NCBI GenBank assembly: GCA_963708025.1
Contig: CAVPSB010000018.1
Location: 32,001-96,000, forward strand
Source: an uncultured Candidatus Rokubacteria bacterium
GTDB taxonomy: Bacteria > Methylomirabilota > Methylomirabilia > Rokubacteriales > DASRDR01
Reading direction: 5' to 3'
Length of the DNA: 64,000 bases
In this document: piece by piece, positions 3,259 to 40,341 of the stretch
Layout of the letters: every line of letters begins with the position of its first letter
Numbering within the stretch: the first letter of the stretch is position 1
Program-made: the position numbers and the translations under genes
The notes under the pieces: model-generated
What the model was told of the DNA's origin: nothing
The model's input: the letters and a program-made list of their open reading frames with translations, nothing else
Databases searched by the model: none

Positions 3259-3303
3259 ACGCCCGCATGGTTCGGGCGGCGGACGGGCAAGGCGCCCGGG
3301 ACG

Positions 3304-3332
3304 TTGACAGCCGCCGCCTAACCCCGTAATTT
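3304..3332 (+). promoter_or_regulatory. Sigma70 promoter of tRNA-Val, left copy
   Basis: TTGACA-17bp-TAATTT, 10 bp upstream of the tRNA 5' end. Confidence 0.85.
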
Positions 3333-3342
3333 ACGTAGGCAC

Positions 3343-3381
3343 GGGCGGATAGCTCAGCGGGGAGAGCGCAGCCCTTACAAG
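3343..3381 (+). pseudogene. 5' half of tRNA-Val(TAC), left attachment site of island A
   Basis: Identical to 28584-28622 (GGGCGGATAGCTCAGC...CCCTTACAAG), then diverges after the anticodon loop. Confidence 0.92.
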
Positions 3382-3400
3382 CCTGGCCGGCGAACCGGAG

Positions 3401-3440
3401 CCCCTCGGTAAGTTCATGGCTTACCGAGGGGTTTTTGTTT
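3401..3440 (+). terminator. Intrinsic terminator after the tRNA half
   Basis: 12-bp perfect stem CCCCTCGGTAAG/CTTACCGAGGGG, 7-nt loop, followed by TTTTTGTTT. Confidence 0.85.
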
Positions 3441-3487
3441 CGCGCGTTGGCTGGTGGGGGCTGGATTTGGGCCGGTTATGGGCCGTG

Positions 3488-3511
3488 ACGGGCATAGTTT
3501 CGGGCATAGTC
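3488..3511 (+). repeat. Putative integrase arm-type site (tandem CGGGCATAGT, 12-bp period)
   Basis: ACGGGCATAGTTTCGGGCATAGTC, identical at 28508-28531. Confidence 0.8.
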
Positions 3512-3608
3512 GGAAGGGCGAAATCACCAGCCGGAGAGGGGAACGGGCCAGAGGAGACGCAGTCGACCCGTGGGTGCTAGAGTATGTCGTAATCCCTCGG
3601 AGCCGTTC

Positions 3609-3815
3609 ATGACGCTGACCATTGAGATCGAGCGGGAAGAGGACGGGCGCTGGATCGGCGAGGTGCCGGAGCTATCCGGTGTCCTCTGCTACGGCGGAAC
3701 CCGGGACGAGGCCATCGCGCGCGTCCAGGCCCTCGCTCTCCGAGTCATCGCCGAACGCTTGGAGCACGGAGAGGCGCCCGCCGAACTGCTGACCGTCTCG
3801 TTCGAAGCGGCGTGA
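3609..3815 (+). CDS. hicB: HicB-family antitoxin
   Basis: IEIEREEDGRWIGEVPELSGVLCYGGTRDEA, typical short HicB. Confidence 0.88.
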   Translation: MTLTIEIEREEDGRWIGEVPELSGVLCYGGTRDEAIARVQALALRVIAERLEHGEAPAELLTVSFEAA

Positions 3816-3960
3816 GCCGCTGGCCCTCGGCCAAGGCGCGGCGGGTCCTGGCCACTCTCCTCCGGATCGGCTGGTCCGTGAAGAGGCAATCGGGCTCCCA
3901 CCGAACCCTGGGGCGCGAAGGCTGGCCCGACTTCGTCTTCGCGTTTCACGACGACGAGAG
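3812..3960 (+). pseudogene. hicA: HicA-family toxin, C-terminally truncated
   Basis: RVLATLLRIGWSVKRQSGSHRTL...FVFAFHDDE; similarity stops before the terminal helix. Confidence 0.8.
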
Positions 3961-4393: not shown

Positions 4394-4744
4394 CTACTTG
4401 AGCCCCAGCTTCGTGATGCGGCTGCGTAACGTCGAGGGCGGGAGTCCGAGGATCGCCGCCGCGCCGCCTTTGCCGGCGATCTGGCCGCCGGTGTGGCGCA
4501 GCACCTCCTGGATGTACTGCCGCTCCATGTCATCGAGCGAGATCAGCTCGGGGGCGGCGGCCTCGCCGGGGGCCGCGGCCGGCCCGCCGGCCTGGCCGGC
4601 GCCCGGTGCGCACTCGGCGGAGAGCTCGATGGTCAGCACCTCGCTCTCGGCGAGGAGGACCGCCCGCTCGATGGTGTGCTCGAGCTTCCGCACGTTGCCG
4701 GGCCAGTCGTATCGGAGCATCTCCTCCATCGAGGCGCCGCCCAC
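4394..4744 (-). pseudogene. C-terminal fragment of sigma54 enhancer-binding (FhlA/NtrC-like) regulator
   Basis: YDWPGNVRKL motif and Fis HTH (GAAAILGLPPSTLRSRITKLG); no GAFTGA/Walker region. Confidence 0.85.
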
Positions 4745-4785
4745 GTGGCCTGGCAGACGGCCGGACGCCCCGGCGAGGCGGCGCC

Positions 4786-5401
4786 GTTAGTCACGACGTT
4801 CCTCGCGCGGGTCCAGGCCGCCTACCCCCCCGCCGACGCGCTTCGGCAGAAGTTCGACTTCTGGTGGACCTACACGCTACGCCTGGCGGGCGGCGAGCGG
4901 GTCGAGCTCGCTGGCCTCGCCGAGGCCGAGCGGGCGCGCCGCGCCGCCGATGCGGCGTACCGCGCCGAGGTCGAGGCCCGGGTCGCGGAGGCCCTCGAGC
5001 GGAGCCTCGCCGGCTTCCGCGCCCAAGTGGCCGAGGCCTGCTAGGCCGTCCTCGCCCACCTCGGGTCCGGTCGGCCGGTGCGGGAGGGCGCCCTCGAGCG
5101 ACTCCGGCGGACGATCCGGCGGTTCCGGGCTCTCAACGTGGTGGAGGACGACGGGCTCGAGCGGCAACTGGCGACGTTCGAGCAGGCGTGCTTGGACGGA
5201 CTCGACGCCGCCGCGGTGAGCCAGGCGCCCGACCTGCGGGCGACGCTGGCCGCGGGGCTCGAGGCCGCGACCGCCGAGCTCCCGCGGAGCGGGCTGACGG
5301 GCCGCGCCCTCCGACGGTTCGATATCGAGGACGAGGTCGGGGACGGGACAGGCGATCCCGGGCGGATCGGGGCCACCACGGATGCGTCCACCGCGGCGTG
5401 A
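4786..5401 (+). pseudogene. Fragment of mobile-element protein (DUF3150-like) with in-frame TAG at 5042-5044
   Basis: AYPPADALRQKFDFWW... continues in frame past TAG into ...RRTIRRFRALNVVEDD; no start. Confidence 0.4.
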
Positions 5402-5445
5402 GCGCGAGGGAGGGGCGGGGACACGCCCGCCTCAGGATGCTCGGG

Positions 5446-5590
5446 TTACGCCGTTCGATCGAGCGTTCGGACAGCCACCAAGTCGTTGTCCGCGACGCGG
5501 CGGACGTCAGTGAGGCGGAGCGTCACGAGCGCCTGGGTCCTCCCGGACGCCGTCACGAACTCCAGTTCGAGACCATCCGGCTCCGAGGGA
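5446..5590 (-). pseudogene. DUF4926-family C-terminal fragment
   Basis: DGLELEFVTASGRTQALVTLRLTDVRRVADNDLVAVR. Confidence 0.6.
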
Positions 5591-5598
5591 GTGACCGA

Positions 5599-6858
5599 TT
5601 GACACCGACGCTCGACGAGACCCTGGTCGCGCTCCACCCGAGCCAGCGCACGGCCGTGACTCACCCGATGCGCCCCCTGCTGCTCGCGTGTGGCCCTGGC
5701 AGCGGCAAGACACGCATCCTGACCCACCGGATCCGGTGGCTGATCGACCACGAAGGGCTGGACTCCACGCGATTCTCGCGCTCACCTTCTCCCGTGCGGC
5801 GGCGGACGAGCTGCGCAGTCGGGTCGGGCAAGCGCTTGGCCCACGCGCCCGGGCGCTCTGGACGGGGACGTTCCACGGGTCACGCCTTCGAGCACACGTA
5901 CCCGGGCGGCACGGTATTCACCGTCGGCCGGAACTATCGCTCCACACCCCAGATCGTGACGACGGCGGCGCGGCTGATCGCGCACAACCGCACCCGCCGG
6001 CCGAAGCCGCTCGCGGCGGTGCGGCCGGCGGGGCCGGTTCCCACGGTCCTCACATGGCCCGACGACCGGGCGGAAGCCGAGGGGCTGGCCGCCGCGTGCA
6101 CCGAGTGGCTGGTCCCCCGATCGCTGTCCTCGCGCGGGTGACCGCGTGCCTGGGGCCGATCGCGCGCGCCTGCGCGGCCCGCGGGCTCACCGTCCGCGTG
6201 CTCATGGATCGGCCCCAGGCCGAGCGCGCCGCCGTGCGCGACCTGCTGGCCGTCTGTCGCGTGCTCGTCAACCCTGCCGACTGGCCGGCCTGGGAGCGGA
6301 TCCTGTGCGGACTCCGCTGCGGGATCGGGACGAGGACCGTGGCGACGCTGCGCGCCCGCGCCGCCAGCGTGGGGCTCGCCGCCGCGCTGACCGAGGCCGC
6401 GCGAACCCGTCCACGGCTGGCCGCGGTCCTCCAGCAGCTCGCGATCTGGCGCACCGCGCCGGCCCCGGTCAGCCAGCTCCTCGAGACGCTGGCGCGGGAG
6501 ATCCACGGCCATCGCCCGGACGAGAGCCCGGAGGCCGCGGAGGCAGCCCGCGATGCCCGGGATCGTCGCGCCGAGGATATGGCCGCGCTGGTCGCCCTCG
6601 CGCGGCGGTGGGAAGCGGCCGGCGGCGAGAGCCTGGGCGAGTTCCTCGACACGGTCGTGCTGAGCGACGAGGACGCCGGGGCCCCGGCCGCGACGCAGGT
6701 GCTCGGCCTCACGCTGCACGCGGCCAAGGGCCTCGAGTTCGACACCGTGGTCATCGTCGGCGTCGAGGAGGGGCTGTTGCCTCACTACCGCCATGCGGTC
6801 CCCGAGGAGCTCGTCGAGGAGCGCCGACTCTGCTACGTCGGAATGACCCGGGCGCGTG
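5599..6858 (+). pseudogene. UvrD/PcrA/Rep SF1 helicase, frameshifted and internally deleted
   Basis: [47 protein letters not shown]; motifs II-III absent (deletion near 5880). Confidence 0.9.
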
Positions 6859-7203
6859 GCGCCTCAAGCAATACCTCGAGAGCCGGGATCCGCTGGCGTA
6901 CGACGAGCTCGAGGTGGGGTTCTTCCCGACGACCGGCCGCTACGACGCGAGGGAAATCGCTCGCGTGGTCGCGGCGGCGGGGGGAGACCCCTGGCCTTTG
7001 TTCTCGGTGGACTCGCGCTCACTCAGAGCGCTCTTCAAGCGGCAGCCCGTCCTCGAGGCCGCCCTGGCCCCGGTGCACACGCCGACCCCGCCATGGTTCG
7101 GGCATCGGAAGGCGAAGACAGGGGGAGCGACGGGGAAGCTCGATCATTCCGCCGCTCGATCAGCTCGCTTGCCTCGTCACCTAGGATGCCGAGGGAGCTG
7201 CGG

Positions 7204-9630: not shown

Positions 9631-9643
9631 CGGCCGGCAGACG

Positions 9644-10099: not shown

Positions 10100-10152
10100 G
10101 CGTGACCGAAGCGTTGAGTGCCCCGGAGACGAGGTGTCGCGGCGGGCTGTTC

Positions 10153-18915: not shown

Positions 18916-18934
18916 CTACACAAAGCAGCGGAAT

Positions 18935-19363
18935 AAGAACGACGAAGGCCGCGTCGTCTACCTGACCCCGGAGCTCCGGACCCTCCTCGAGGCCCAGCTC
19001 GAGCGGATCCGTGCGGTCGAGCGGCGGACCGGCCGCATCATCCCCTTCCTGTTTCCCTACCTCAGCGGACCGCGGCGCCTCGGCCAGCGCCGACGTGACT
19101 ACCGGAAGGCCTGGGAGGCGGCGTGCACGTCCGCGGGCGTCGCTGGTCGGGTCCGCCACGACTTCCGCCGGACCGCAGTCCGCAACCTGGTCAACGCTGG
19201 TGTGCCAGAGCGGGTGGCCATGACGATCACCGGGCACAAGAGCCGAGCCGTGTTCGACCGCTACCACATCGTGAGCCCGGGCGACCTCCAGGAGGCCATG
19301 CGAAAGCTCGCGGGCACGTTTCCGGGCACGTTGGCCCCCGCGATTGGCCCCCGCGAAGGTTGA
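18935..19363 (+). pseudogene. Tyrosine integrase C-terminal fragment, paralog of 27725-28570
   Basis: KNDEGRVVYLTPEL...RHDFRRTAVRNLVNAGVPERVAMTITGHKSRAVFDRY (no start, absent from ORF track). Confidence 0.92.
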
Positions 19364-19476
19364 CCGTCTCGTTCGAAGCGGCGTGAGCCGCTGGCCCTCG
19401 ACCAAGGCGCGCCGCGTCCTGGCCGCTCTGCTCCGGATCGGCTGGTCCGTGAGGAGGCAATCGGACTCCCACCGAA
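19361..19476 (+). repeat. Second partial hicB-hicA copy (116 bp, homologous to 3790-3905)
   Basis: TGACCGTCTCGTTCGAAGCGGCGTGAGCCGCTGGCCCTCG...CTCCCACCGAA, few substitutions. Confidence 0.9.
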
Positions 19477-22621: not shown

Positions 22622-22631
22622 GCGTTCTCCT

Positions 22632-23515: not shown

Positions 23516-23715
23516 GTAGGAAATGCTAGCGACGTTTTTCTCGCCCTCTCCCTGGCCCCGCATCCCCTCGCTCTCGCCTTGGCCCCCGCAGCCCGACTGT
23601 AGCGCCGCGCCGGCCCGCGCGGCAAGGGCGTCGGGAGGTCGGAGAGGTGGCGCGGAAGCCGCCCCGCGGGGTCGGCAGGCAGACGGGGGAGGGGCCGCGC
23701 GGGGGGGCCGGCGGA
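23516..23715 (-). mobile_element. IS91-family oriIS end, copy 2 (non-coding, 200 bp)
   Basis: Near-identical to the first about 200 bp of 20309 copy; abuts GAAC at 23512-23515. Confidence 0.85.
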
Positions 23716-23776
23716 GCGACGATAGTGCGATCGTCGGCGCCGGCCCCGGAGCCGGACGCCAGCGAGGGAGACGGCG

Positions 23777-24837
23777 ATGGAGCAGACGCTCGACAAGCAG
23801 CGGACACAGGAGTTCGCCCGGAAGCTCTTCGGGCTCTACACGAGCGGCATCCTCACCCTGATGGTGGACATCGGCCACAAGACGGGTCTCTTCGAGGCGG
23901 TGGCGTGCGGCCGGGGGACCAGCCGGGAGATCGCCGAGCGTGCGGGGCTCGAGGAGCGCTACGTGCGCGAGTGGCTCGGGGCGATGGCGACGGGCGGCAT
24001 CGTCGAGTACGCGGCGGCGTCGCGGACGTTCACGCTGCCGCCCGAGCACGCCGTCTGCCTGACCGGCACCTCGAGCCGTAACCTCGCCGCCGGCAGCCAG
24101 GGCCTCCTGATGCTCGCCAAGCGTCTGCCCCGGGTCGTCGAGTGCTTTCGCCGGGGCGGCGGCGTCCCCTACTCCGAGTTCCGGCCGGACTTCACCGAGG
24201 CGATGGACGCCTCCTGGCGTCTCCTCTACGACGGGCTCCTGATCAAGGGCTTCCTGCCGGCCGCCAAGGAGCTGCCCGAGCGGCTACAGGCCGGCATCCG
24301 GGCTCTGGACCTCGGCTGCGGGACCGGGCACGCGATCAACCTCATGGCCCGCGAGTATCCCCGCTCCACCTTCGTCGGCTATGACCTCGGCGAGGATGCG
24401 ATCACCCGCGCCCGGGCCGAGGCCCAATCGCTGGGACTCGGGAACGCTCGCTTCGAGGTCCGGGACGTGGGGCGGTTGCCCGCCGAGCCGAAGTTCGATC
24501 TGATCACGTCCTTCGACGCCATCCACGACCAGCGCGATCCGGCGGCGGTTCTCCGCTGTGCGGCGGACGCCCTCGCCCCCGACGGGGTTTACCTCATGGT
24601 CGAGCCGAAGGCCTCGAGCAACCTCGAGGAGAACATCGGTAACCCCTTCGCCCCCTACCTCTACGGGATGAGCGTGCTCCACTGCATGACGTGTCCCTCG
24701 CCGAGGGCGGGGCGGGGCTCGGGACGGCGTGGGGCGCAGAGACGGCGCGCCGGATGCTGGAGGAGGCCGGCTTCACGTCCATCGCCGTGGTGGACGCGCC
24801 CGGTCCCCAGAACAGCATCTACATCTGTCGCCGCTGA
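23777..24837 (+). CDS. Class I SAM methyltransferase with N-terminal winged helix (Rv2258c-like; frameshift near 24690)
   Basis: ERYVREWL, LDLGCGTG, FDAIHD, HCMT(V)SLAEGGAGLGTAWG. Confidence 0.88.
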
Positions 24838-24838
24838 G

Positions 24839-26495
24839 CTAGCCCGGGGCCGCGCGCTTGCGCGCCTCCTCCTGGTGGCGGAGCTCGACCCGGCGGATCT
24901 TGCCGCTGATGGTCTTCGGCAGCTCGCGCACGAACTCGATCTCGCGCGGGTACTTGTAGGGCGCCGTCACCCGCTTGACGTGCTCTTGCAGTTCCTCGGC
25001 GAGCCGGGGCGATGGGTCGTGGCCCGGGGCCAGGATCACGAAGGCCTTCACGACGCTGCCGCGCATGGGGTCGGGGCTGGCCACCACGGCGGCCTCGGCC
25101 ACGGCCGGATGCTCGACCAGGGCCGACTCCACCTCGAAGGGTCCGATGCGGTAGCCGGCGCTGATGATCACGTCGTCGGCCCGCCCGACGAACCAGAAGT
25201 AGCCGTCGGCGTCGCACCGGGCCCGGTCGCCGGTGACGTACCAGTCGCCGCGGAAGCAGCCGGCCGTGGCCTCCGGGTTCCGCCAGTACTCGCGAAAGAG
25301 CCCCACCGGACGCTCGGGCTTCGACGCGCACGGCGATGTCGCCCTCGGCATCGGGCGCCGCCGCGCGGCCCTCGTGGTCGATCACCGCGACGTCGAAGCC
25401 CGGCATCGGCTTGCCCATCGAGCCCGGCTTGACGGGCAGGCAGCGATAGTTGCCGACGAGCAGCACGGTCTCGGTCTGACCGTAGCCGTCGTAGATCGTC
25501 AGCCCGGTGCCCTTCTTCCACGCCTCGATGACCTCAGGGTTGAGCGGCTCGCCGGCGCCGACGCAGTGGCGGAGCTTCGGCAGCCGGAAGTGGCGGAGGT
25601 CCTCCAGCACCATCATGCGATAGGCGGTGGGAGGCGCGCAGAAGGTGGTCACCCCGTGCCGCTCGAGGAGGGTGAGGCAGCGCTTGGCGTCGAACTTTCC
25701 CCGATCGTCCACGATCAGGAGGGCGGCGCCCATGCGCCAGGGGCCGAAGAGGTTGCTGTAGGCCGCCTTGGCCCAGCCGGTGTCGGAGAGGTTCCAGTGC
25801 AGATCGCTGGCCGAGAGGTCGAGCCAGTACTTTCCCGTGAGCCGGTGGGCGAGGCCGTAGGACGCTTGCGTGTGGAGCACCATCTTGGGCCCGGCCGTCG
25901 TGCCCGAGGTGAAGTAGACCATCAGGGGGTCGTCGCTCCGCGTCTTCTCGAGCACGATCTGGGAGGGGGCCGCCCCCATGGTCGCGTCGAAGCTCTCCCA
26001 GCCCGCGCGGGTGCCGCCCACGAGCAGGAGGCGCTCGAGCGTCGGGCACTGGGCGCGGGCTCGCTCGACGGTCTCGGCGCTCTCGGGGGTGGTGATCGCC
26101 AGCTTCACGCTGGCGCTCTTCACACGGTAGGCGATGTCCTTCACCGTGAGCAGCGTGGTCCCGGGCATGGGGACGGCCCCGAGCTTGATGAGCCCGAGCA
26201 GGATGACGTGCCACTCGGGCAGGCGCGGCATGATGACGAGCACGCCGTCGCCCTTCTTGATGCCGAGCGCGCGGAGGACGTTGGCGCAGCGGTTCGACGC
26301 GTCGCGGAAGTAGCCGAAGCTGAGCCGGCGCTCCTCGCCGTCCTGGCCCACCCAGAGCATGGCCAGCTGGCCGGGATCCTCGCCGGCCCAGCGATCCACC
26401 ACGTCCTGGGCGAAGTTGAAGCGCTCCGAAACTTCCAGGCGGCAGACGCGTCGCTCGTGCTCGTAGTCGGTCATGTTCGGCGGCGGGTTTGCCAT
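24839..26495 (-). CDS. Medium-chain acyl-CoA synthetase (ACSM-like; frameshift near 25322)
   Basis: [45 protein letters not shown]. Confidence 0.9.
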
Positions 26496-26610
26496 CACCG
26501 TCCTCCTGCGGGCCGCGGCCCGCTTTCGACGACCGCCCATCCGATCCGGCGGGGCTCACCGCGGCCCGCCCTGCGCGCCGATGGTCCGCTGTACGGGGTT
26601 CGGGAGCTGA

Positions 26611-26928
26611 TCACTCGAGAAGCACGTCGGCACGACCCAGGATGGAAGGGGGAATGGAGAGACCGATGGCGCGTGCGCTTCTCAGGTTCACGACCAGCTC
26701 GAAGCGTGTCGGCTGCTCGATGGGCAGGTCCGCGGGCTTGGCGCCCTTGAGAATCTTGTCGACGAAGGAGGCCGTCCGATAGAACTGGTCCTGGAGGTTC
26801 GACCCGTACGACATGAGCCCGCCCGCTTCGACCGCTTCCCTGAACCCGTATATCGCCGGCAGTCGCTGCTTCGTCGCGAACTCCAGGATCTTCGCCCGGT
26901 TGCGGCCGGTGACGAGAACGACGAGAAC
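26611..26928 (-). pseudogene. C-terminal fragment of ABC substrate-binding protein (ABC_sub_bind type)
   Basis: RLPAIY..GGLMSYG..VDKILKGAKPADLPIEQPTRFELVVNL; cut at the IS91 junction. Confidence 0.9.
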
Positions 26929-27377
26929 GTAGGAAATGCTAGGAACCTAGGAAATGCTAGCGACGTTTTTCTCGCCCTCTTCCTGGCCCCGCATCCCCTC
27001 GCTCTCGCCTTGGCCCCCGCAGCGCGACTGTAGCGCCGCGCCGGCCCGCGCGGCAAGGGCGTCGGGAGGTCGGAGCGGTGGCGCGGAAGCCGCCCCGCGG
27101 GGTCGGCAGGCAGGCGGGGGAGGGGCCGGGCGGGGGGGCCGGCGGATCGGGGGGCGCGCGGGTCAGGCGGCGGGGACGGCGTGGCCCGGCGGCGGCTGGG
27201 CGGCGAGCCCCAGCGCCGCCAGCAGCCGCCCCACCGCGTGGGGCTCCGTCACCGCCCCGAGGACCCGGCGCGGGCCCCCGCACCGCTCACACACCAGCAC
27301 CTGGATGGCGAACACTCGGCGGAGGAGCCGAGCCCAGGTCCACCGCCCCGGTGACCGCGCGCCTGCGTCCGCGCCAG
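26929..27377 (-). mobile_element. IS91-family remnant, copy 3 (duplicated terminal 18 bp)
   Basis: Near-identical to 20309-20738; GAACGTAGGAAATGCTAG-GAACCTAGGAAATGCTAG. Confidence 0.85.
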
Positions 27378-27590
27378 CCGAGCCCTTCCCGCCGCGGATC
27401 TTGATCGGCGGCACCACCAGCAGGAACTCGTAGACGCCCGCCGCCGCCAGCCCCTCCAGCCGGAAGTTCTCGATGATGAAGATCCCGTGGTCGGCGATCA
27501 GCAGCATGTGGACCGGGAAGACCTGGAATACCGGCGTGAAGACGACGGGCGGCCGCTTCTCGAAGGTCAGGGTGTCGGGGGCTAGCCAAC
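27378..27590 (-). pseudogene. Cyclase/kynurenine formamidase family C-terminal fragment
   Basis: FPVHMLLIADHGIFIIENFRLEGLA..YEFLLVVPPIKIRGGKGS. Confidence 0.8.
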
Positions 27591-27724
27591 ACAATGCCCC
27601 TTCTCAGCCATGGGCCCCCGGGCGGGGGCCGGCCGGCTGGGACGACATCGCGGTGGGCGTGACGGCCCCGCTGGTGGCACTCGCCCTGGGCGGCCTGCGT
27701 CGACAGGCTCCGGTGGGTCCGCGG

Positions 27725-28570
27725 CACTACCGCGTGAAGCACCTCGAGCGGTTCTTTGCCGGACGGCGCGTCGCGAGTCTCGGCCAGGCTGAGGTGGATG
27801 CCTACATCCTGGCGCGACACCGGCGGGGCGCGGCCGCCGGGACGATTCGCCGCGAGCTCGGCACGTTGGTCAAGATGCTGAGGCTGGCGTACACGGCCGG
27901 GAAGCTGGTCAGGCTGCCGGTGCTCGAGAAGCCCAAAGAGGGGGCCCCGCGCGAAGGGTTCTTCGAGCGCGAGCAGTACGAGGCGGTGCGGCAGCACCTC
28001 CCGGCCGATCTCCAGCTGGCGACGGCCATCGCCTACACCTACGGCTGGCGGACGCAGAGCGAGGTCCTCATCCTCGAGCGCCGTCAGCTGGATCTGGAGG
28101 CGGGCACGCTCCGGCTGGACCCGGGACAGACGAAAAACGACGACGGTCGCCTCGTCTATCTCACCCCCGAGTTGAAGACGCTCCTGGGCGCGCAACTCGA
28201 GCGGATCCGAGTGGTGGAGCGGCGAGCCGGGCGCATCATCCCGTATCTGTTTCCCTATCTGGGTGGCGCGCACCGCCTCGGTCAGCGTCGGCGGGACTAT
28301 CGGAAGGCGTGGGTCACGGCGTGCGAGAAGGCCGGGGTGGTGGGGCGCGTCCGCCACGACTTCCGGCGGACCGCCGTCCGCAACATGGTGAACCGCGGGG
28401 TGGCCGAGCGGGTCGCCATGACGATCACGGGCCACAAGACGCGCAGCGTGTTCGATCGCTACCACATCGTGAGCCCGCGCGAGCTCGAGGACGCGGCCCG
28501 GCGGCTCACGGGCATAGTTTCGGGCATAGTCCGGGCGGCGGACGTTGACAGCCGCCGCCTGACCCCGTAA
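27725..28570 (+). pseudogene. int: Tyrosine integrase of island A, N-terminal arm-binding region missing
   Basis: Catalytic set GWRT, TKND, HDFRR, GH, DRY; upstream part of ORF 27473-28570 is unrelated (antisense cyclase). Confidence 0.92.
28508..28531 (+). repeat. Putative arm-type site inside the integrase 3' end
   Basis: Identical to 3488-3511. Confidence 0.8.
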
Positions 28571-28573
28571 TTT
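28545..28573 (+). promoter_or_regulatory. Sigma70 promoter of intact tRNA-Val, overlapping the integrase C-terminus
   Basis: TTGACA-17bp-TAATTT; TAA 28568-28570 is the integrase stop. Confidence 0.85.
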
Positions 28574-28583
28574 ACTTAGGCAC

Positions 28584-28659
28584 GGGCGGATAGCTCAGCG
28601 GGGAGAGCGCAGCCCTTACAAGGCTGAGGTCGCAGGTTCGAGCCCTGCTCCGCCTACCA
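28584..28659 (+). tRNA. tRNA-Val(TAC)
   Basis: 76-nt cloverleaf: GGGCGGA/TCCGCCT, D arm GCTC/GAGC, CAGCC-CTTACAA-GGCTG, GCAGG-TTCGAGC-CCTGC, encoded CCA. Confidence 0.97.
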
Positions 28660-28896
28660 GCGAATCTCCTGCTCTTGCGCGGCTACGGCGCTCACACCAT
28701 GCGCCCACACCTATCGCTCGAGAGCAGGAGTTCGCAGCCCCGAGCCATCGAGCCCCCACCATGTGGTCTGCCCCCGTCTCCCCTTGCGGCCCTTCACGTC
28801 TTCGCAGCGAAGATGCCGCGTCCGGCCCTGGACGGTTAGACCCAGCGTGAAGCCACCGCGACACTGGTGCCGATGAGGTTTCCAACCGGACGGGCC

Positions 28897-29025
28897 GCGC
28901 GCGTCCAGGAGTTACTGACCGCGAAGTGTTCGGCGCTGGAGGCGCTGGCGAAGCGCCTTATGGAGAAGGAGGTCGTGAGCCGCGAGGCGCTGGGCTCACT
29001 GCTGAGCGGAACCCACCCCCGATAG
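28897..29025 (+). pseudogene. FtsH-like C-terminal tail fragment
   Basis: ARVQELLTAK..ALEALAKRLMEKEVVSREALGSLL*. Confidence 0.6.
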
Positions 29026-29176
29026 CCGTCGTCTGCTCCTCCTGAGGCCCCCTGAGGGTCCTGCCCCGCCCTCCGCCTCAGGAGAATGGTGCAGACGGAT
29101 CATTGCGAGGTCCGTCCACTGCGCGAAGATAGGCGTAAGACGAGCCCGCAACTGGCCGGAAGGCGAGGGGGACGCG

Positions 29177-29411
29177 ATGGGGGCCGAGACAGCGACTAGC
29201 TAGGCCAGCCGAAAGGTGTCCGTTCCTGGTGCCCGTGATGGCCGACGGGCTCTGGCTGCGCCCCACGAGCGCATATTGCCGGCGGCCGAATGGCCGCGTG
29301 CGGGTGCCCGCGGTGTTGACGGTCGACTGCATCTGCACGACGCGGGCGCATCTGGTTTGTGCCGGGTACCTCGAGACGTCGGACCAGGCCGCGGCGGCGA
29401 GCGCCGCCTGA
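29177..29411 (+). CDS. Small Cys/His-rich protein (start needs a 1-base correction in a G run)
   Basis: RCPFL...AYCRRPNGRVRVP...DCICTTRAHLVCAGY; RBS GAGGGGG before ATG 29177. Confidence 0.45.
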
Positions 29412-29575
29412 CCCGCAGTGGGACGTCCCGGCGCCAGTGGGCATCGGCTCCTGATGCCCCGGCGTTGACAGTGCCCGCGCGTGCAAGCTCACGCGAGTGC
29501 CGGCATGAGCGGCGCGCATAGCCGGCCCGACTTCCGCATGGGTTCAAGACAGTCGAGCACCTCATTGGGTCAGGC

Positions 29576-32103
29576 TCATCCGTCTGAACGCTCTTCCTCA
29601 CGCGCCCGGGACTTCTCGCTGTCGCCGCGTGAGCCAAGCGTCACGACGAGGCCGAGCGGCAGGAGCGCGAGCAGCGCACCGGCCACGGCCAGCGTCCAAT
29701 CTCCGAAGTGCAGCGGCTCGAGGTGAAGGACGCCCGCGAGCGGCGGCGTCTGCACGAGGACGATCGCGGACGCGACGGTGGCGGCCGACACTAACCAGGC
29801 GGCGGCCGTGCGGAGCCGGCTCAGCGCCGCCGTCAGGAAGCCACTGGCCAGCGCGAGCGTCACCAGCGCCGCCGCCCGTCCGTGCTCCACACCACCGGGC
29901 TCGCTCGCGCTCCGCACGTATGCCAGGATCACCGCCACGGCGATGATCCCGCCGGTCATCGCGATCAGAAGCCAGTCGCCCCCCCGAAACAGGATCGCCC
30001 GCTGCGGCGCCGCCGCTCGCTGGAGCGGGCCAGCGGGCAATTCCTGGAACACGAGCAATGCCGAGGGATGGATGATCAGCTCGACCCAGACGATGTGCAC
30101 CGGCAGGTAGAGCAGCGGGTAGCCGAGCAGAGGAATCGCGAGCGCGGAGACGACGAAGGGCGCATGAATCATCAGGAGATACTGGAAGCTCGTTCTGAGG
30201 TTCGCGAAGAGCTGGCGGCCCTCGCTGATGGCCCGGACGATCGTGCGGAAGTTGTCGTCGAGCAGCACGATCGCCGCCACCTCGCGGGCGCTCCGCGTGC
30301 CACGCTCGCCCATCGCGATGCCGACGTCGGCCGCCTGGAGCGCCGGCACGTCGTTCACCCCGTCGCCGGTCACCGCCACGATCTCGCCGGCCTCTTGGAG
30401 GCCTCGAACGAGCGTCAGCTTCTGGGACGGCGTGGCCCGGGCGATCACGTCGACGCGCTTGAGCTGCTCCAGCTCGCCGCGGGCCGCAAGGTGCTCCATC
30501 TCGTCGCCGGTCACGACGCGCGGCACCGCCCCGCCGAGCCCGATCTCTCGGGCCACCGCGCGCGCCGTCAGCGGATGGTCGCCCGTCACCATGACGACAC
30601 GAATCCCGGCCGCGTGGCATGTGCGGACGGCTTCGGCCACGCCCTCGCGGACCGGATCCTCGAAGGCCAGCAGGCCGGCCAGCCGAAACCCCGCCGTCGG
30701 CTCCTCTCCCGGGCCGGCTCCGGTCTCCACGGGCCGCCAGGCACAGGCGATGACCTTGTGCCCCTCCTCGGCGAGGGCGGCCACCCGATCCAGCACGCGA
30801 GAGCGCTCGGTCTCGACGGCATCGCACATGCCGACGATCGTCTCCGCCGCGCCCTTGGTCACGGCGATGACCGCGCCATCCCCTCGCGAACGATCGCCGT
30901 CTCACGCTTCCGGCTCTCGGTGAACGGGAAGACGGCCAGACGCTCGACGCCCTCCCGGCAGATCTCGATCCGTCCGGCTTCGGCGATGACGGCGAGGTCG
31001 AGCGGATCGCCACTCTCGGCGCGGGAGGCGAGCGCCGCCAGCCGAAGCAGGGCCGCGTCGTCGACGCCGCCCGCGGATCGGAGATGCGTCAGGCGGAGCC
31101 GGCCTTCGGTGATCGTGCCGGTCTTGTCCGAGCAGATGGTCGTGACGCGCCCGATGTTCTCCACGGACACCGCTCGTCGCACCAGCGCCTGGCGTCTCGC
31201 GAGCCGGTAGACGCCCACGCCGAGGAAGAAGGTGAAGACGACGGGGAACTCCTCCGGCATCGCCGCGACGGCGAGCGTCACGGCGCTCACCAGCGCATCG
31301 AGCCAGCCGTAACCCTGGCGGAGGCGGACCCCGGCCAGGATCAGACAGATGACCGCGGCAATGGCGAGAAGCAGCCCGACGAGGTTCTTGATGGCCTCTG
31401 GAGCGGCGTGAGCGCCCGCCGGCCTCGGACGGCCGACTGGACGATCTCACCGTAGAGAGTCTCGGCGCCCGGTGAAGACGACGCGCAGCAGGGCCTCGCC
31501 CGTCAGCAGGCGCGTTCCCGCGAACCCCCAGTGCAGCGTCTCGACCAACGGTTCGTCCCCCGGGCCGACAGGCTCCTGCAGGGGGCGCTTCGGGACGGGG
31601 TATGCCTCGCCGGTCAACGTCGACTCGTCGGCCTGAAGCTCGGATCCGGCGACGACGAGGCCGTCGGCCGGAAAGGGCTGGCCCGACGCGACGACCGCCA
31701 GGTCCCCCGGCACCAACTCCAGCGCGCTCAATTCGACGCGGCTACCGTCACGCACGACCATTGCCCTCGCGGCGAGGCGGGTCCTGAGTCCCTCGGCGGA
31801 GGCCTGACTTCGCCAGTGGAGGAAGGCGTCCATCCCGACGAGTGGTAGGAGAGCGACGAGCAGGGTCAGGGCTTCTGCGAAGTCCCCGATCCCAGCATAG
31901 AGCAGACTCGTCGCACCCAGGAACCAGAGCATCGGATCCTTCGCGGTGTCACGAGCGAGCTCCCGCCAGCGGGCAGGCGGCGCTTCGACGATCGCGTTGG
32001 CGCCGTACCGCTCCCGTCGCTCGCTCGCCTCAGTCGCGGTGAGCCCGCGCTGCGATCCGAGCAGATCGCGTAGCCGCTCGAGCGGGACCGCGCGTCGAGT
32101 CAC
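29576..32103 (-). CDS. Cation-transporting P-type ATPase (several frameshifts)
   Basis: [37 protein letters not shown] spread over several frames. Confidence 0.9.
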
Positions 32104-32527
32104 CGCGTTCCCTCCAGGCCCGCGACTGGATCGCGGGTGATGACCATCGCCTCGTCAGCCCGGATCACGAAGCGCCTATGCGTACCGGCCTCGGCGCCGA
32201 TCACCGGCTCTCGGGCGACCGCGTCCGGTTCCGCTCGGTGTCGAGGGCGAGGCAGCACCACTCCATCTGCTGCCATGTCGACGCGCGCCTCAAGCGAGTG
32301 CTCGCCGGTATTGCCGGACCGCTCGACCCCTGGTGCCACCACATGGACGGCGGACGTGGCACCGGTGAGCCCAAAGGGCCCGAGCTTACCCTCAGTGGCC
32401 AGTAGCCCGACGGTGTCGCCGCTTCGGGAGAACCTCGGCCAGCGGGGGCGAGATGACAGGCCGCGGAAGACAACCAGCACCGTCTCATCATCGGGTTGAG
32501 GCAGGCAGAGATGACGCTCGACGTCCG

Positions 32528-35213
<2,686 letters not shown>

Positions 35214-35636
35214 GGCGGTCGTCTCCCGCTCCACGCCCAATTCCCCCTCAGTCGTGTCGTCGGCTGGCGGCGGAAAAAAACCCTCCTGTGCTCGCGCGCA
35301 AGAGGTCTCGATCCGGGCCCGTCTACATGCCCCGTCGGCGCGCCGGGTCGCCCATGACCGGCGACCGGGTTGGCGGCGTCGCCAAGCTACGCGATCTACT
35401 CCCCTCGAGTGTAGTCGATCCGTGTCCGTGCAAGCCGAGCGCCAACCCGACGACTCCGGGAGGCCCGGGAAGTGCGCGGATCTCAGCCTGATTGCACGCC
35501 TCAGCGCGCGGTGCCGGCCTGGGCTGAGGCGTCGATGCCCCAGTGGTGGCGGCAGGCGCCTCCCGGCGGGCTCGCGGACCCGCGCGACATCAGGCGCGCA
35601 CCAACGGAGTCATGTCAGCAGGCCGTCTCGTCCGCC

Positions 35637-36219
35637 TCATGCCGTCGAGGTGAACGGGGCCTCCAGCCGGGCGAGCACTGCGGCCTCCACCCCCGAGACC
35701 CGTTCACCGAACCCGAGCACACCGCCGCTGGTCTTGGCCACCGCTCGCGCGCGGTCGAGCAAGGCTCGCTTGAGCCGCGCGCGCCCTTCGGAATCGAGTT
35801 GCTCGCACATCCCCTGGACCAGATGAGTCCACGCCGTCAGCAGCTGCGGCGGCGGCTGGCGATCCAACCAGGCCTCGATCATGGCGTGCTCGATCGACCC
35901 GGAGACGAATCCGGCGGCTCCCACCCGCTCCAGCACGGCGCGGCGCTCCGGAGGGTCGAGCACCCCGTCGGCCCAGGCCACCTCCACGAGCGGAACCAGG
36001 GACAGGGCGGCCACCGTCTCGGCGCGAATGCCCAGCTCCATCAGCTTGTCGATGACAGCGCGGCTGGTGACCCCCGAGGCCTTCGCGAGAGCGTCCCGCG
36101 CCGTGTTCGACCGCCTTGAGCCTTCGCAACTGCTCGACCATCGATTGATCCTCGGGGCGGAAGAACTCGTCCTCGAGACTCTGGCCCCGATCGCGCAGCG
36201 GCTCCGGTGCGTGCGACAT
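35637..36219 (-). CDS. Conserved hypothetical protein, TerB-like fold (frameshift near 36105)
   Basis: RGQSLEDEFF.., LVPLVEVAWADGVLDPPER, VAKTSGGVLGFG.RVS..E. Confidence 0.65.
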
Positions 36220-36329
36220 GACGCCCCTCCTTGTTGTGGGATCGTGTGACCCTGCCAACCGCCTCGGGGTCTTCGGACACCGGCGGCGCCACGGGCATGC
36301 GGGATATTGAGGTCACCCGCACAGCCCGC

Positions 36330-36420
36330 TTCCTCGTCCGCGAACTGCTCCGGCGGCTGCGTCTGGGGGAGCCCGACCGGCGGATCGCCCGTGATCCGAG
36401 CATGAGCCGGCACACGGACG
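36330..36420 (+). mobile_element. IS21-family IstA N-terminal HTH remnant
   Basis: VRELLRRLRLGEPDRRIARDPSMSRHT. Confidence 0.6.
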
Positions 36421-36423
36421 GCT

Positions 36424-37785
36424 TCAGCGCGGCTCTCCCGGAGCGCACGGCAGCTCCACGATGACCGCGAGCCCGCGACCGCCGGGACCATCCGCGAAGC
36501 GGACTGTCGCGTCGTGGAGGTCCGCGATGCGCTTGACGATCGAGAGCCCGAGCCCGATGCCCGACTCGCGGCTCCCGGGAAGCCGATGGAAGCGCTGTCC
36601 GAGCCCTGCCCGGTCCGCCGGCGGGACGCCGGGTCCCTGGTCGCTCACCACGAGACGCCCGATCGCGCCGTCCCGGACAACCTCGACCCGCGCGCTCCCA
36701 CCCGCAGCGCCGTAGCGCACGGCGTTGTCGACGAGGTTCCGGACGAGGATCGCCAGCAGCGCCGGAGCCCCGGGGACGACGACCGACGGCCCCTCCACCA
36801 GCTCGAGCTCGATGCCCTTCGCCACCGCCAGCGGCGCGACGTCGGTGAGGACTTGCTTCACCACGTGTCGGAGGTCGCACACCTCGCCGCGCCCGACGGA
36901 CTCGCCGGGGTCGAGCCGCGCGAGCGTGAGGAGCTGCTCGACCGCGCGCGCCGCGCGATCACAGCCCGCCACGATGCTGTCGAGCGCGGCGCGGCGCTCG
37001 CTCTCCCTCGTTGCCGCGCGGGCGACCTCGGCGTGCGCGCGGACGGCGGCGATCGGCGTCCTGAGCTCGTGGGCCGCGTCCGCCGTGAACCGGCGCTCGC
37101 TCTCGATGGACACGCGCACCCGCTCGAGGAGGCGATTCAGGTTGGTCACCAGCGGCGCGACCTCGGCGGGTGGGCTCGTCACCTCGAGCGGCGCCAGGTT
37201 GTTCGGGTCGCGCTGCATGACCTGCGCGCCGAGGCTCGCCAGGGGTCGGGTCCCCCAGCGGATGCCGAGCCACACGAGCAGGCCCAGCAGCGGGAGCGCG
37301 ACGACCATCGGCTTGAGGAGGTTCATGCCGATCGTGGCGGCGAGGCGCTCGCGTGCGGTGCGCTCTTCCCCCACCTGGATCAGGAACCGTTGCTTGTGCC
37401 CCCAGGTGCTGAAGACGCGCCAGCGCCGGCCCCCGACATCGGCGTCGCTGAACCCGTCGAGCCGCTCGGACAGCCGCTCGTTCGGCGCGTCGGCGGAATG
37501 CAGGCGGAGCACCCGTCCCCGCTCCCAGATCTGGAACACGACCCGCTGCCCGTAGCGGTGGACCTTCGGAGCGTGCTCCATCTCGATCTCTTCCAGCTCG
37601 TGGCTCGCCTGCGCCACGAGCAGGGCCGCGGCCTGCACGAGGTGGGCGTCGAGCAGCTCGTCGAGCTCGCGCCGCGCGTCGAGGTAACTCACGACCGCGG
37701 TGGCCAGCCAGATCGCCGCCACCGCCGCGAGCACCCCCGCAAGCAGCCGGCCCTTCATGGAGGCCGGCCTCGGCGCCTCAGTCAT
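36424..37785 (-). CDS. Sensor histidine kinase, QseC/PmrB-like
   Basis: ELLDAHL, 2 TM, FTADAAHELRTP, NLVDNAVRY, DQGPG, GIGLGL. Confidence 0.93.
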   Translation of the reverse strand: MTEAPRPASMKGRLLAGVLAAVAAIWLATAVVSYLDARRELDELLDAHLVQAAALLVAQASHELEEIEMEHAPKVHRYGQRVVFQIWERGRVLRLHSADAPNERLSERLDGFSDADVGGRRWRVFSTWGHKQRFLIQVGEERTARERLAATIGMNLLKPMVVALPLLGLLVWLGIRWGTRPLASLGAQVMQRDPNNLAPLEVTSPPAEVAPLVTNLNRLLERVRVSIESERRFTADAAHELRTPIAAVRAHAEVARAATRESERRAALDSIVAGCDRAARAVEQLLTLARLDPGESVGRGEVCDLRHVVKQVLTDVAPLAVAKGIELELVEGPSVVVPGAPALLAILVRNLVDNAVRYGAAGGSARVEVVRDGAIGRLVVSDQGPGVPPADRAGLGQRFHRLPGSRESGIGLGLSIVKRIADLHDATVRFADGPGGRGLAVIVELPCAPGEPR

Positions 37786-38446
37786 CGTCCTCGCGGGGCA
37801 TCAGGTAGCCGACGCCGCGGATGGTGCGGATCAGCGCCGGCGCGAGCTTGCGCCGCAGGTGGTGGACGTGCACCTCCACCGCGTTGCTCTCGATCTCCCG
37901 CCCCCACGGGTAGAGTCGCTCCTCGAGCTGCTCGCGGGACAGGACGCGCCCCGCGTTCAGCATGAGCGCGTGCAGCAGCGAGAACTCGCGCGCGGAGAGC
38001 TCGACGGGCCTGCCGCGGAACACCACGCGATGCGCGGCGGGGTCGAGCTCGAGCTCCCCGCGGCGCAGCGCCGGTGCCGCCTCGCCGCTCGCGCGCCGGA
38101 TCAACGCCCGGAGCCGCGCCGCCAGCTCGGCGAGGTCCACGGGCTTGACGACGTAATCGTCGGCGCCGGCGTCGAGCCCGGTGACGCGATCGTCCACGGC
38201 GTCGCGGGCCGTGAGGATCAGCACGGGCACCTTGCTGCGGCGCGCGCGAAGGCGACGCAGCACCGTGAGGCCGCCCAGCCCCGGCAGCCCGAGGTCGAGC
38301 ACCACGGCCGCGATCGGCTCGGCCTCGAGCAGGTCGAGCGCGTCGGGGCCGTCCCGGACCCAGTCCACCGCGAAGCCCGCCTGAGCGAGTCCGGCGCGGA
38401 TGCCGTCACCGAGCAACGCATCGTCCTCGACCAGGAGCACCCGCAT
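37778..38446 (-). CDS. OmpR-family response regulator, QseB/PmrA-like
   Basis: LLVEDD, LDLGLP, LTARD, GADDY.VKP, SNAVEVHVHHLRRKL, TIRGVGY. Confidence 0.95.
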   Translation of the reverse strand: MRVLLVEDDALLGDGIRAGLAQAGFAVDWVRDGPDALDLLEAEPIAAVVLDLGLPGLGGLTVLRRLRARRSKVPVLILTARDAVDDRVTGLDAGADDYVVKPVDLAELAARLRALIRRASGEAAPALRRGELELDPAAHRVVFRGRPVELSAREFSLLHALMLNAGRVLSREQLEERLYPWGREIESNAVEVHVHHLRRKLAPALIRTIRGVGYLMPREDDD

Positions 38447-38452
38447 CGCCGC

Positions 38453-39160
38453 TCAGTCGTCCTCCGAGTGCGCGGCGCGGGTTGCGCTCTCCTGGGCGAC
38501 CTTCGCGCCGCCTCGCCCGACGCCGGGAAGCGAGACGACGTCGAGCCAGAGCGCAAGGACCAGCGCGGCGAGCCCTGCGCCGACGAGCCATCGCGACCGC
38601 GGAATGCCGTCGCTCGCCGCACCGCGCTTTCTCCCCGTGATCATCGCTCCGACCAGATTCTCCCGGTGCAGCACGCTGCTCAGGACCACGCCGGCGACGT
38701 GCACGCCAACCGTGGCGAGCAGCGTCCACGCGAGCGCGGCGTGCGCGTCTTCGAGCCACTTGCCGCCAATGTCGTTGGACGTGGCGGAGCCGGTGACCCC
38801 GACGAGGACGCCGAGACTCAGCATCAGCCAGATCGCCCAGCTGCCGGCTGGAGTGTGACCCAGGTGGCGCGCGGCCGACGATTCCAGTGTGGCGAGCGAC
38901 GCGAGGTAACGCAAGACCGCGCGCGGCCCGAAGGCGAACGCGCCGAACCGCGCGTAGCGAGTCCCCACCACCCCCCACACGAGCCGGAACGCGATCAGGA
39001 CCAGCATCGTGGCGCCGAACGTCACGTGCAGATCGCGGTGGCGCTCCGAATCGGCGGTGACGAACGCCCCGGCGAACGAGAGCACGAGCAGCCAGTGGAA
39101 GAGCCGGGTCGGAACGTCCCAGACCAGGATCGTTCGCGGACGGCCGCCGGCGGCCCTCAT
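38453..39160 (-). CDS. Cytochrome b/b6-domain membrane protein
   Basis: VWDVPTRLFHW, FRLVWGVVGTRYARF, GHTPAG, HVAGV, ENLVGAMITG. Confidence 0.92.
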   Translation of the reverse strand: MRAAGGRPRTILVWDVPTRLFHWLLVLSFAGAFVTADSERHRDLHVTFGATMLVLIAFRLVWGVVGTRYARFGAFAFGPRAVLRYLASLATLESSAARHLGHTPAGSWAIWLMLSLGVLVGVTGSATSNDIGGKWLEDAHAALAWTLLATVGVHVAGVVLSSVLHRENLVGAMITGRKRGAASDGIPRSRWLVGAGLAALVLALWLDVVSLPGVGRGGAKVAQESATRAAHSEDD

Positions 39161-39627
39161 CTCGGCAGCCTCACGCCGTGCTCATCGTAGTCGCCGCTCT
39201 CCGCGGCGCGATGGCACGCCGCGCAGTTCGCGGGGCTCTTGACGCCGGCGTGCGCCCACACGGCGGCGGGAACCTCGCGGTGCTCGCGGCGAAACCACGC
39301 CGTGTCGGTGATGCGGGTCGTCGCCGCGACCCCCCGATCCCGTCCGGCGTACTGCTCCAGGAACGACTTCACCTGGGCGGCGGTGTTCGGGTCGAGCGAG
39401 GCGTCGGTGCCGAAGTGCTTGTCGAGACTTCCCATGATCGCCTGCCACGAGCGGGCCGGCAGGAGCTGCGGCGGATACGCCAGGTGGCACGCGCCGCACT
39501 CGGTCTTCCAGGTGGCGTTGGTGGTCACCGCAAGGCGCCCGTCGGCGCGGGCCGATGTCGTGGGCTGGATGACGAGCACCGCCAGGATCGACGCGCACGC
39601 CGCGACGAGAACCGGTACGTTCTTCAT
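39157..39627 (-). CDS. Diheme cytochrome c (DHC family)
   Basis: ECGACHLAYPP.LLP, HFGTDASL, WF.REH, NCAACH; signal peptide. Confidence 0.93.
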   Translation of the reverse strand: MKNVPVLVAACASILAVLVIQPTTSARADGRLAVTTNATWKTECGACHLAYPPQLLPARSWQAIMGSLDKHFGTDASLDPNTAAQVKSFLEQYAGRDRGVAATTRITDTAWFRREHREVPAAVWAHAGVKSPANCAACHRAAESGDYDEHGVRLPR

Positions 39628-39634
39628 GAGGGCC

Positions 39635-40054
39635 TCACTTCCCAAGCGACAGGAGCCATGCGAGCACGTCACCCTTCTCGAGCGCCGTGCAGCTCCGTCC
39701 GAGGACGTCGTTGCAGTTGCGCTTGAACCACTTGTCGACACTCGCGGGATCGGTGAACCGCTCGGGGTTCGCCACCGGTGCCAGGGGGGCGAGCGTCTTG
39801 CCGGTCTTCGCGTGTCGCCCCACCTGGCGAGGATCCGCCGTGTGACAGGTCGCGCAGCTCCAGTCGCTGCCGTGCACGGCCTTGAAGAACTGCTGCCCGC
39901 GCTGGCCGGAGAAACCGGAAAACGCCGGGCTGGCCTGCCGAGCTTCCGCCTCGAGGGCTCGCTGGATGTCGAGCGGCGACGCGGCTGACGCGAGCGCGCT
40001 CCCGCCGAGGATCCAGCCCGTGACGATCATGCTTCCGAGTGTCGCTGTCCGCAT
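39635..40054 (-). CDS. Sphaeroides heme protein-like cytochrome c (DUF1924)
   Basis: SCATCH, GRHAKTGK, KWFKRNCNDVLGRSC..EKGD. Confidence 0.9.
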   Translation of the reverse strand: MRTATLGSMIVTGWILGGSALASAASPLDIQRALEAEARQASPAFSGFSGQRGQQFFKAVHGSDWSCATCHTADPRQVGRHAKTGKTLAPLAPVANPERFTDPASVDKWFKRNCNDVLGRSCTALEKGDVLAWLLSLGK

Positions 40055-40089
40055 GGTGACCTCCCAGTCGATGTGTGCCATCGAGAGGA

Positions 40090-40122
40090 AGGCTAGGGCC
40101 GCCGCCTTAACGGCCGCTTAAG
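40090..40122 (-). promoter_or_regulatory. PmrA/QseB-type box plus -10 element for the shp-dhc-cytb operon
   Basis: Minus strand CTTAAG-N5-GTTAAG, then TAGCCT 10 bp downstream. Confidence 0.7.
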
Positions 40123-40299
40123 CGGATCACCGCTCGCTCCCGGACAGTACTCTCTCGATTTCGGTGAGGCCGTCCGGTCGGAAGGGAACACTGTGTCAAC
40201 CAGTGGCCGACGTCTACCGGGTTTGCAGGGTGAGGGCTGGCAGCGTGGCGTGGCAGCGAACTGGTAACTGGCCGACTCCTGAAGGTGTGTCTACCCCCG

Positions 40300-40341
40300 T
40301 TACAAGGCTGGGGTCGCAGGTTCGAGCCCTGCTCCGCCTAC
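40300..40341 (+). pseudogene. 3' half of tRNA-Val(TAC), right attachment site of island B
   Basis: TTACAAGGCTGGGGTCGCAGGTTCGAGCCCTGCTCCGCCTAC, one mismatch to the intact gene, no CCA. Confidence 0.92.

Follow-up and report, generated by a model that had tools for sequence, protein, structure and literature searches.

A single tRNA-Val gene in an uncultured Candidatus Rokubacteria bacterium probably bears island scars on both of its sides: a reversed-polarity island upstream (island A) and the remnant of a classical island downstream (region B), which would make the working tRNA a hybrid of two mobile elements. The locus lies in a 64,000-nt stretch, referred to here as the window, which corresponds to positions 32001-96000 of contig C18 of this genome; positions without a contig name are those of the window, and the features of the locus are collected in Table 1. 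Other genomes and their contigs are given in the form G084:C296.

The window holds one tRNA only, tRNA-Val(tac), which was called by ARAGORN and found as the same single gene with Rfam. This gene is single copy among the 50 tRNAs called genome-wide, the sole other Val tRNA having a gac anticodon. In addition to the intact gene, the window contains a displaced 5' half and a displaced 3' half, both in the same orientation as the intact gene. The 5' half and the promoter-like region in front of it (3299-3381, copy 1) agree with the corresponding part of the intact locus (28540-28622, copy 2) at 81 of 83 positions, and self-BLAST of the window returned E values of 2e-34 for this 5' repeat and 3e-13 for the 3' repeat. 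When the whole genome was searched by BLAST with the tRNA and 44 nt of upstream sequence, no pieces were found beyond the two displaced halves. One edge is common to all three copies, the heptamer TTACAAG, which comprises tRNA positions 33-39, i.e. the last six bases of the anticodon loop and G39. The initial annotation of this DNA had described tRNA-Val as present in the form of a 5' half, an intact gene and a 3' half with a crossover in the anticodon loop, and both the coordinates and the counts (BLAST, 81/83 and 41/42) as well as the position of the crossover proved correct. The intact gene encodes CCA and the displaced 3' half lacks it, a difference that says little because CCA is encoded in 38 of the 50 tRNAs of this genome. 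Differences from relatives in the variable loop and the T-loop likewise gave no indication of which tRNA half is native.

The tyrosine integrase gene at the right end of island A, int2, reads toward the tRNA and ends within the promoter-like region, 14 nt short of tRNA position 1. Followed in the direction of the tRNA, the attachment site of island A would comprise the 3' end of the integrase gene with two arm-type repeats, the promoter-like sequence, tRNA positions 1-39 and the crossover, and past the crossover a terminator hairpin, two further arm-type repeats and the cargo. As judged by eye, hexamer pairs similar to those of the two promoter-like copies occur in the same place in G177, in G075 and at 458 kb of our own contig C18, and a weaker pair is found in G084. 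The RNA of positions 3343-3445 folds with -50.1 kcal/mol, none of 200 shuffled sequences being as stable, and the hairpin, which begins 16 nt past the crossover, would stop transcription from the stranded promoter. The left copy of the 24-mer formed by the arm-type repeats sits 107 nt inside island A, and the sequences flanking the two copies are unlike each other; 24-mers of this kind at both island ends would match the pattern expected if each arm of an attachment site carried arm-type binding sites. A plausible course of events is that all islands at this gene crossed over at TTACAAG in the anticodon loop, with the anticodon stem acting as the flanking inverted repeat. Integration of island A would have stranded the previously used front half at the far end of the island, with the terminator of the island directly behind it, and the working gene would have been rebuilt from the promoter and front half brought by the island. 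An ordinary island B would have supplied the back half, displacing the earlier back half by 11.6 kb.

The same layout recurs among relatives of int2. Of 183 genomes belonging to the same order, 91 contain homologs of this integrase (three unpublished ones counted in), and the 30 best homolog loci in that order, our own included, were inspected closely. A tRNA lies about 10-110 nt from the 3' end of the integrase in 20 of these loci and is missing there from the other ten. The 20 tRNA-adjacent loci divide into six convergent ones, which correspond to the classical arrangement, and 14 co-oriented ones (integrase, then tRNA), whose tRNAs are Val-tac (four), Val-cac (two), Asp (four), Met (two), Arg-tct and Ser-tga. 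Longer flanks were taken for ten co-oriented relatives, and in five of the ten a displaced 5' half, broken off at tRNA position 39-42, lies about 7-35 kb upstream of the integrase. These are G084:C296 (Val-tac, 35.2 kb away), G012:C30 (Asp, 33.9 kb), G020:C78 (Asp, 9.2 kb, 48/48 identical), G177:C163 (Met, 9.2 kb, 40/40 identical) and G075:C37 (Val-cac, 6.9 kb), where an integrase relic before the stranded copy indicates a tandem array. In the fetched loci, which total 886 kb, the hairpin motif CCCCTCGG[TC]AAG occurs in five places, four of which lie 17-21 nt past a displaced 5' half (our own locus, G084, G012:C30 and G177), the fifth being in G162:C193. Likewise, a tandem repeat occurs both at the left end of the island, at +106/107 relative to the crossover, and in the integrase tail, at -72 to -76 relative to the tRNA; it is present in our own island as the 24-mer, in G012:C30 as a 21-mer with the motif of our own island despite the tRNA being Asp, and in G084 as a 12-mer of the GGGCACCAT type. 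Since the hairpin and the arm repeats recur in several of these relatives, island A can be placed in a family with a fixed reversed-polarity attachment site. The claim that the promoter-like region and the 5' half belong to island A, beside its own integrase, is thus upheld, and the survey proposed along with it, for co-oriented tRNAs downstream of integrase homologs with a 5' half at the far end, found this combination in the five relatives named above.

That the two outer halves sum to one tRNA and that TTACAAG flanks the whole block would also be expected if one 37-kb element (3382-40299) had entered the anticodon loop, generating a 7-bp duplication and bringing its own full replacement tRNA-Val. 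Such a single element is extremely improbable, given that in relatives the junction of integrase, promoter and tRNA forms the right boundary of the island and the far end has a 5' half only, with no 3' half in the approximately 20 kb of sequence fetched downstream in G084, G177 and G075. Moreover, the arm-type repeat at 3488 pairs with that at 28508 and with nothing near 40300, and copy 1 itself resembles the island-borne copy upstream to 3265.

Several results weigh against scars of two islands at this gene, and they concern the signals and the integrase of island A, its relatives, region B and the assembly. A consensus promoter scan made no call in the region of either copy, and what stands of the promoter named in the initial annotation are the TTGACA and TAATTT hexamers that can be read in both copies. 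A simple terminator scan of the left end of island A did not call the hairpin. The N-terminal domain found in full-length relatives of int2 is absent from every frame at int2, and mobility can therefore not be assumed. In the other five of the ten co-oriented relatives, for which 4-20 kb of upstream sequence were available, a displaced half was not found. When five relatives were searched with the right flank, region B and island A, neither a syntenic block nor an empty site was found. Finally, region B contained no PF00589 match, no significant tblastn match to int2 and no integrase relic, and its best counterpart, G008:C103, has no tRNA or integrase nearby.

The findings on region B lead to the question of whether only island A was site-specific. 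Region B would then be ordinary variable DNA and the half at 40300 an older unrelated leftover, for example a small scar later filled by rearrangement, so that the back half of the tRNA would not have come from B. This would agree with the lack of an integrase in B, with the poor anticodon-stem mimic to the left of the core (40295-40299), with a right flank that is rearranged relative to relatives, and with the presence of CCA in the intact gene and its absence from the displaced half. We nevertheless consider it unlikely, as the 3' half at the right edge of region B begins exactly at the shared 7-nt core and is 41/42 identical to the intact gene, as region B is absent as a block from five relatives and found only as fragments in three of them, and as classical 3' half islands of the int2 family, like the 3' half scars at this very tRNA in G010 and G018, show the same breakpoint. 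Region B is more probably the remnant of a classical island that lost its tRNA-side integrase end, and it would have entered by site-specific integration. Thus, the island B of the initial annotation holds as accessory DNA bounded by a 3' half, its integrase being absent and its island nature being read from the scar. As had also been proposed, the working tRNA is most simply seen as an element-element hybrid, with A bringing the 5' half and accessory region B bounded by the 3' half. As a separate observation, region B includes two paralogous P-type ATPase genes (29576-35240, minus strand), each in about three open reading frames (ORFs), with a counterpart in G008 that is 82% identical over 2.5 kb.

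An artificial origin of the arrangement, by mis-joining of contigs via the tRNA repeats, has to be considered as well. The 8.17-Mb genome is a metagenome-type assembly in 49 contigs with an estimated contamination of 8%, a G012 contig breaks exactly in the anticodon loop, and in no public run did the share of sampled words from 27900-29400 exceed 0.19. Contigs of four public runs gave only short pieces and conserved-domain noise on 20500-40499, none of them bridging 28540-28660 or 40300; circle or empty-site junctions did not appear in these contigs. However, a mis-join is very unlikely because the longest exact shared runs are 46 nt between copies 1 and 2 and 30 nt between copies 2 and 3, lengths that we consider short for a mis-join given the usual word sizes of assemblers, and because the GC content is even over the junctions. 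In addition, the same architecture is present on independent contigs of other genomes. The two-sided occupation by island A and a former island B remains our preferred explanation.

Both polarities occur within one integrase family. A wide survey covered 80 integrase loci from several phyla, with record titles naming Rokubacteria/Methylomirabilota, Binatia, Acidobacteriota, Desulfobacterales and other Deltaproteobacteria, and Nitrospirota, among others. Twelve of these loci are co-oriented, 43 are convergent, 21 have no tRNA and four are cut off, and 3' halves starting at position 30-33 lie within 10 kb in five of the 43 convergent loci. The classical layout is also represented by the convergent locus G001:C60, with 3' halves from positions 34 and 37, and in our own genome by a tRNA-Asp (C18:100178) with a 3' half from position 31 at 16.5 kb downstream. 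A tree of 26 of the 30 closely inspected integrases (four with matches covering no more than 200 int2 residues were left out) is largely unresolved, 13 of its 23 inner branches being open, and polarity is unclustered on it, with 9 changes versus a shuffled mean of 8.9. One sister pair of opposite polarity, L051 (co-oriented) and L058 (convergent), has a support of 100/100. Occupation of both sides of a tRNA was found at two of the 12 co-oriented survey loci: in L122 an integrase is followed by tRNA-Arg(cct), and 1.9 kb downstream lies a 3' half comprising positions 33-79, and in G020:C78 a 20-nt 3'-end fragment lies 1.2 kb downstream. Tentatively, these observations could mean that the int2 family works both ways and has a fixed reversed site with a silencing terminator, close relatives switching between the 3' half and the promoter with the 5' half because the anticodon arm is symmetric. 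Stacking of islands might then render an essential tRNA and its promoter wholly element-derived and provide a route of turnover.

Further junctions of this family were noticed beside those of the surveys. At L068 (G162:C193, 7302-11204), an integrase followed by tRNA-Val(cac) is accompanied at about 7302 by a hairpin like those at island left ends, and a second family integrase faces the 3' side of the tRNA from a distance of 1.6 kb. Our own genome has two more co-oriented pairs of family integrase and tRNA, one at Arg-cct (C44:6698-7645) and one at Lys-ttt (C15:381021-381458) with 5' fragments 6.5 and 9.6 kb upstream. An orphan junction that lies beyond the window, at C18:457737-458140, consists of an integrase relic, an int1-type GGGCACGTT tandem repeat, TTGACA, and after 17 nt a -10-like box, and goes on with the first half of a CGT-anticodon tRNA that is broken after the anticodon loop; no intact partner tRNA was found nearby.

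That the outer 5' copy is the native copy of the host is improbable in view of its upstream sequence. In a gapped alignment the similarity of copy 1 to copy 2 runs upstream to 3265 (corresponding to 28512), i.e. through the promoter-like region into the int2 tail and arm region, and residues 352-365 of int2 have a weak tblastn match at 3267-3326 (E 1.3). By contrast, the repeat ends no more than 6 nt upstream of the tRNA in four of the five reversed-layout relatives, and it extends to -47 only in the tandem case of G075. Likewise, in five relatives with a fetched intact tRNA-Val the match begins 0-6 nt upstream of the tRNA, and the only place at which our own upstream region was matched is G012:C22, where it stands behind an integrase relic. 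Because the similarity passes the promoter into the integrase tail, unlike in those four relatives, we lean toward deriving 3299-3381 from an earlier island of the same family, of which it would be the right end, rather than from the original gene start of the host. No further 5' half or hairpin was found upstream of dctPQM (C18:27001-35400).

The closest genomes compared belong to another genus. In five of them (G010, G011, G008, G018 and G013) the sequence upstream of tRNA-Val shows synteny with C18:3000-28250, which borders closely on the left side of the window, and the locus is thus taken to occupy the ancestral position of tRNA-Val; the downstream flank in these relatives matches other contigs of our own genome, and the right flank of the window is scattered in five relatives. 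The dctPQM genes at the left flank are 89-90% identical to those of five genomes of another genus and 85% identical to those of a sixth (G012), and this identity, which exceeds the 67-80% of most neighbouring syntenic genes in those genomes, suggests that they were recently transferred horizontally. In relatives that have dctPQM it lies far from tRNA-Val, and in six of six the dctM match stops at the stop of the gene with no tRNA after it. The predicted empty site, in which dctM and the receiver gene would be joined via one tRNA, was not seen, a result that does not refute the prediction, as the relatives are all of another genus. Farther into the right flank (48642-61730), G-rich and C-rich palindromic repeats of about 40-95 nt are found at 48.6, 52.0, 55.9, 57.7 and 61.7 kb.

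Island A itself is decayed. The homology of int2 to its full-length relatives begins at residue 85, and we read the N-terminal part that those relatives share as an arm-binding domain. In a 12-member alignment R109, K137, R214, H237 and Y246 are invariant and H211 is nearly so; int2 has all six of these residues, which we take to be the catalytic ones. The repeat D1 ends 348 nt upstream of the point at which the family homology of int2 starts (27725), and a D1-related copy (20525-21028, minus strand) contains part of a Y2_Tnp domain (E 3.5e-8). Of a second family integrase, int1, only the C-terminal 138 residues survive, and they are abutted by a relic of a hicB-hicA-like pair. The corresponding pair at the left end of the island looks intact, its HicA-like reading stopping after about residue 49, and the reading of the relic beside int1 departs after 'SHR'. 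A nested model, in which an int1 segment targeted hicBA, was rejected, as the truncated hicA copy is the one after int1; a simple tandem model of island A fits poorly, the left-end arm repeats matching int2 and not int1. The first 20 kb of island A have merely scattered, multi-copy matches in five relatives. Island A is a mosaic with two integrase relics and is probably immobile and fixed in place. Its cargo includes a UvrD-like helicase gene split over two overlapping ORFs (4606-7184); such DNA is present in several copies in G020 and G012, two of them within a few kb of family integrases (G020:C91 and G012:C20), and may be conserved island cargo. A DUF433 and DUF5615 (PIN-like) gene pair in the island (19571-20418, minus strand) is likely a toxin-antitoxin module.

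Table 1. Features at the tRNA-Val locus and its flanks, in window coordinates
Feature	Position	Strand	Remarks
dctP, dctQ, dctM, TRAP transporter genes, left flank	317-3258	+	Pfam DctP/DctQ/DctM, E 3e-70 to 8e-105
Putative relic of integrase tail/arm-site region upstream of copy 1	3265-3298	+	gapped alignment to 28512-28539
Promoter-like region, copy 1	3299-3342	+	TTGACA 3304-3309, 17 nt, TAATTT 3327-3332; by eye; two mismatches to copy 2
Displaced tRNA-Val 5' half, positions 1-39	3343-3381	+	identical to 28584-28622; ends in TTACAAG 3375-3381
Island A, reversed-polarity, decayed mosaic, 25.2 kb	3382-28539		5' half repeats at borders; integrase at right end
Putative terminator hairpin	3397-3444	+	CCCCTCGGTAAG, loop, CTTACCGAGGGG, followed by T-run
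Arm-type tandem repeat, island A left end	3488-3511	+	2 x GGGCATAGT; 24/24 identical to 28508-28531
hicB-hicA-like toxin-antitoxin pair, just inside left end	3609-3960	+	HicB_lk E 0.006, HicA_toxin E 3e-5, below curated cut-offs
int1, C-terminal relic of second family integrase	18929-19363	+	74% identical to int2 residues 219-356; PF00589 E 6e-9
Tandem repeat of int1	19312-19332	+	2 x GGGCACGTT; repeat search
Relic of hicB 3' end and hicA 5' end, abutting int1 tail	19346-19476	+	91% identical to 3773-3905
Repeat D1	26942-27377		other copies 20304-20739, 23512-23718; 97.7% over 436 nt
int2, tyrosine integrase, core-binding and catalytic parts only	27725-28570	+	PF00589 E 1.4e-11; listed ORF 27473-28570
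Arm-type tandem repeat inside int2 tail	28508-28531	+	2 x GGGCATAGT; exact 24-mer shared with 3488-3511
Promoter-like region, copy 2	28545-28573	+	TTGACA, 17 nt, TAATTT; by eye; overlaps int2 ORF end
Intact tRNA-Val(TAC)	28584-28659	+	ARAGORN; Rfam tRNA 69.6 bits; core TTACAAG 28616-28622
Region B, accessory DNA, 11.6 kb	28660-40299		P-type ATPase ORFs, sensor kinase, response regulator, cytochrome b561, dihaem cytochrome c, DUF1924 (Pfam)
Displaced tRNA-Val 3' half, positions 33-74, no encoded CCA	40300-40341	+	41/42 to 28617-28658; TTACAAG 40300-40306
Two receiver-domain genes, right flank	40480-41765	-	Pfam Response_reg

The locus offers a clear example of an essential tRNA gene whose promoter and front half can be exchanged for those of a mobile island, and of two polarities meeting on one gene, and related integrases of opposite polarity with a conserved site layout could be used to study what determines the polarity of targeting. 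Programs that look for islands by a 3' fragment would delimit such loci wrongly. As a principle this is not new, since reversed polarity is already documented and the locus is a member of a documented minority class. A paper by Zhao and Williams from 2002 (J Bacteriol 184:859) reportedly dealt with reversed-orientation tRNA islands, going by its title in reference lists.

Of the 3919 islands in Table 1 of the Islander description, 3760 have a 3' fragment and 159 a 5' fragment, and 2083 islands are stated to have an anticodon-centred site (PMC4383910). As characterised in that source, the 5' fragment islands resemble island A in that the island lies upstream of the rebuilt tRNA, with the 5' fragment at the far end and a tyrosine integrase beside the attachment site; island A differs from them in that the opposite side of its tRNA bears a 3' half scar. 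In Thermococcales archaea, pTN3-like integrases are described as using the 5' half of a tRNA gene as attB (PMC8371274). These belong to archaeal plasmids and viruses, and they are likened to island A by description, not by sequence. A non-exhaustive literature search brought up no description of islands with opposite polarities flanking one tRNA. Classical anticodon-loop islands and prophages, in the classes of Williams (2002) as summarised in PMC8371274 and PMC4383910, share with our locus the 7-nt overlap in the loop and inverted core sites formed by the stem. This class accommodates region B and the convergent members of the family, whereas island A differs from it in its opposite polarity and in that it must bring a promoter, and B in that its integrase would have been lost. 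Compared with these known systems, the added value of the present locus would lie in a conserved attachment-site design and in frequent switching of polarity within one integrase family.

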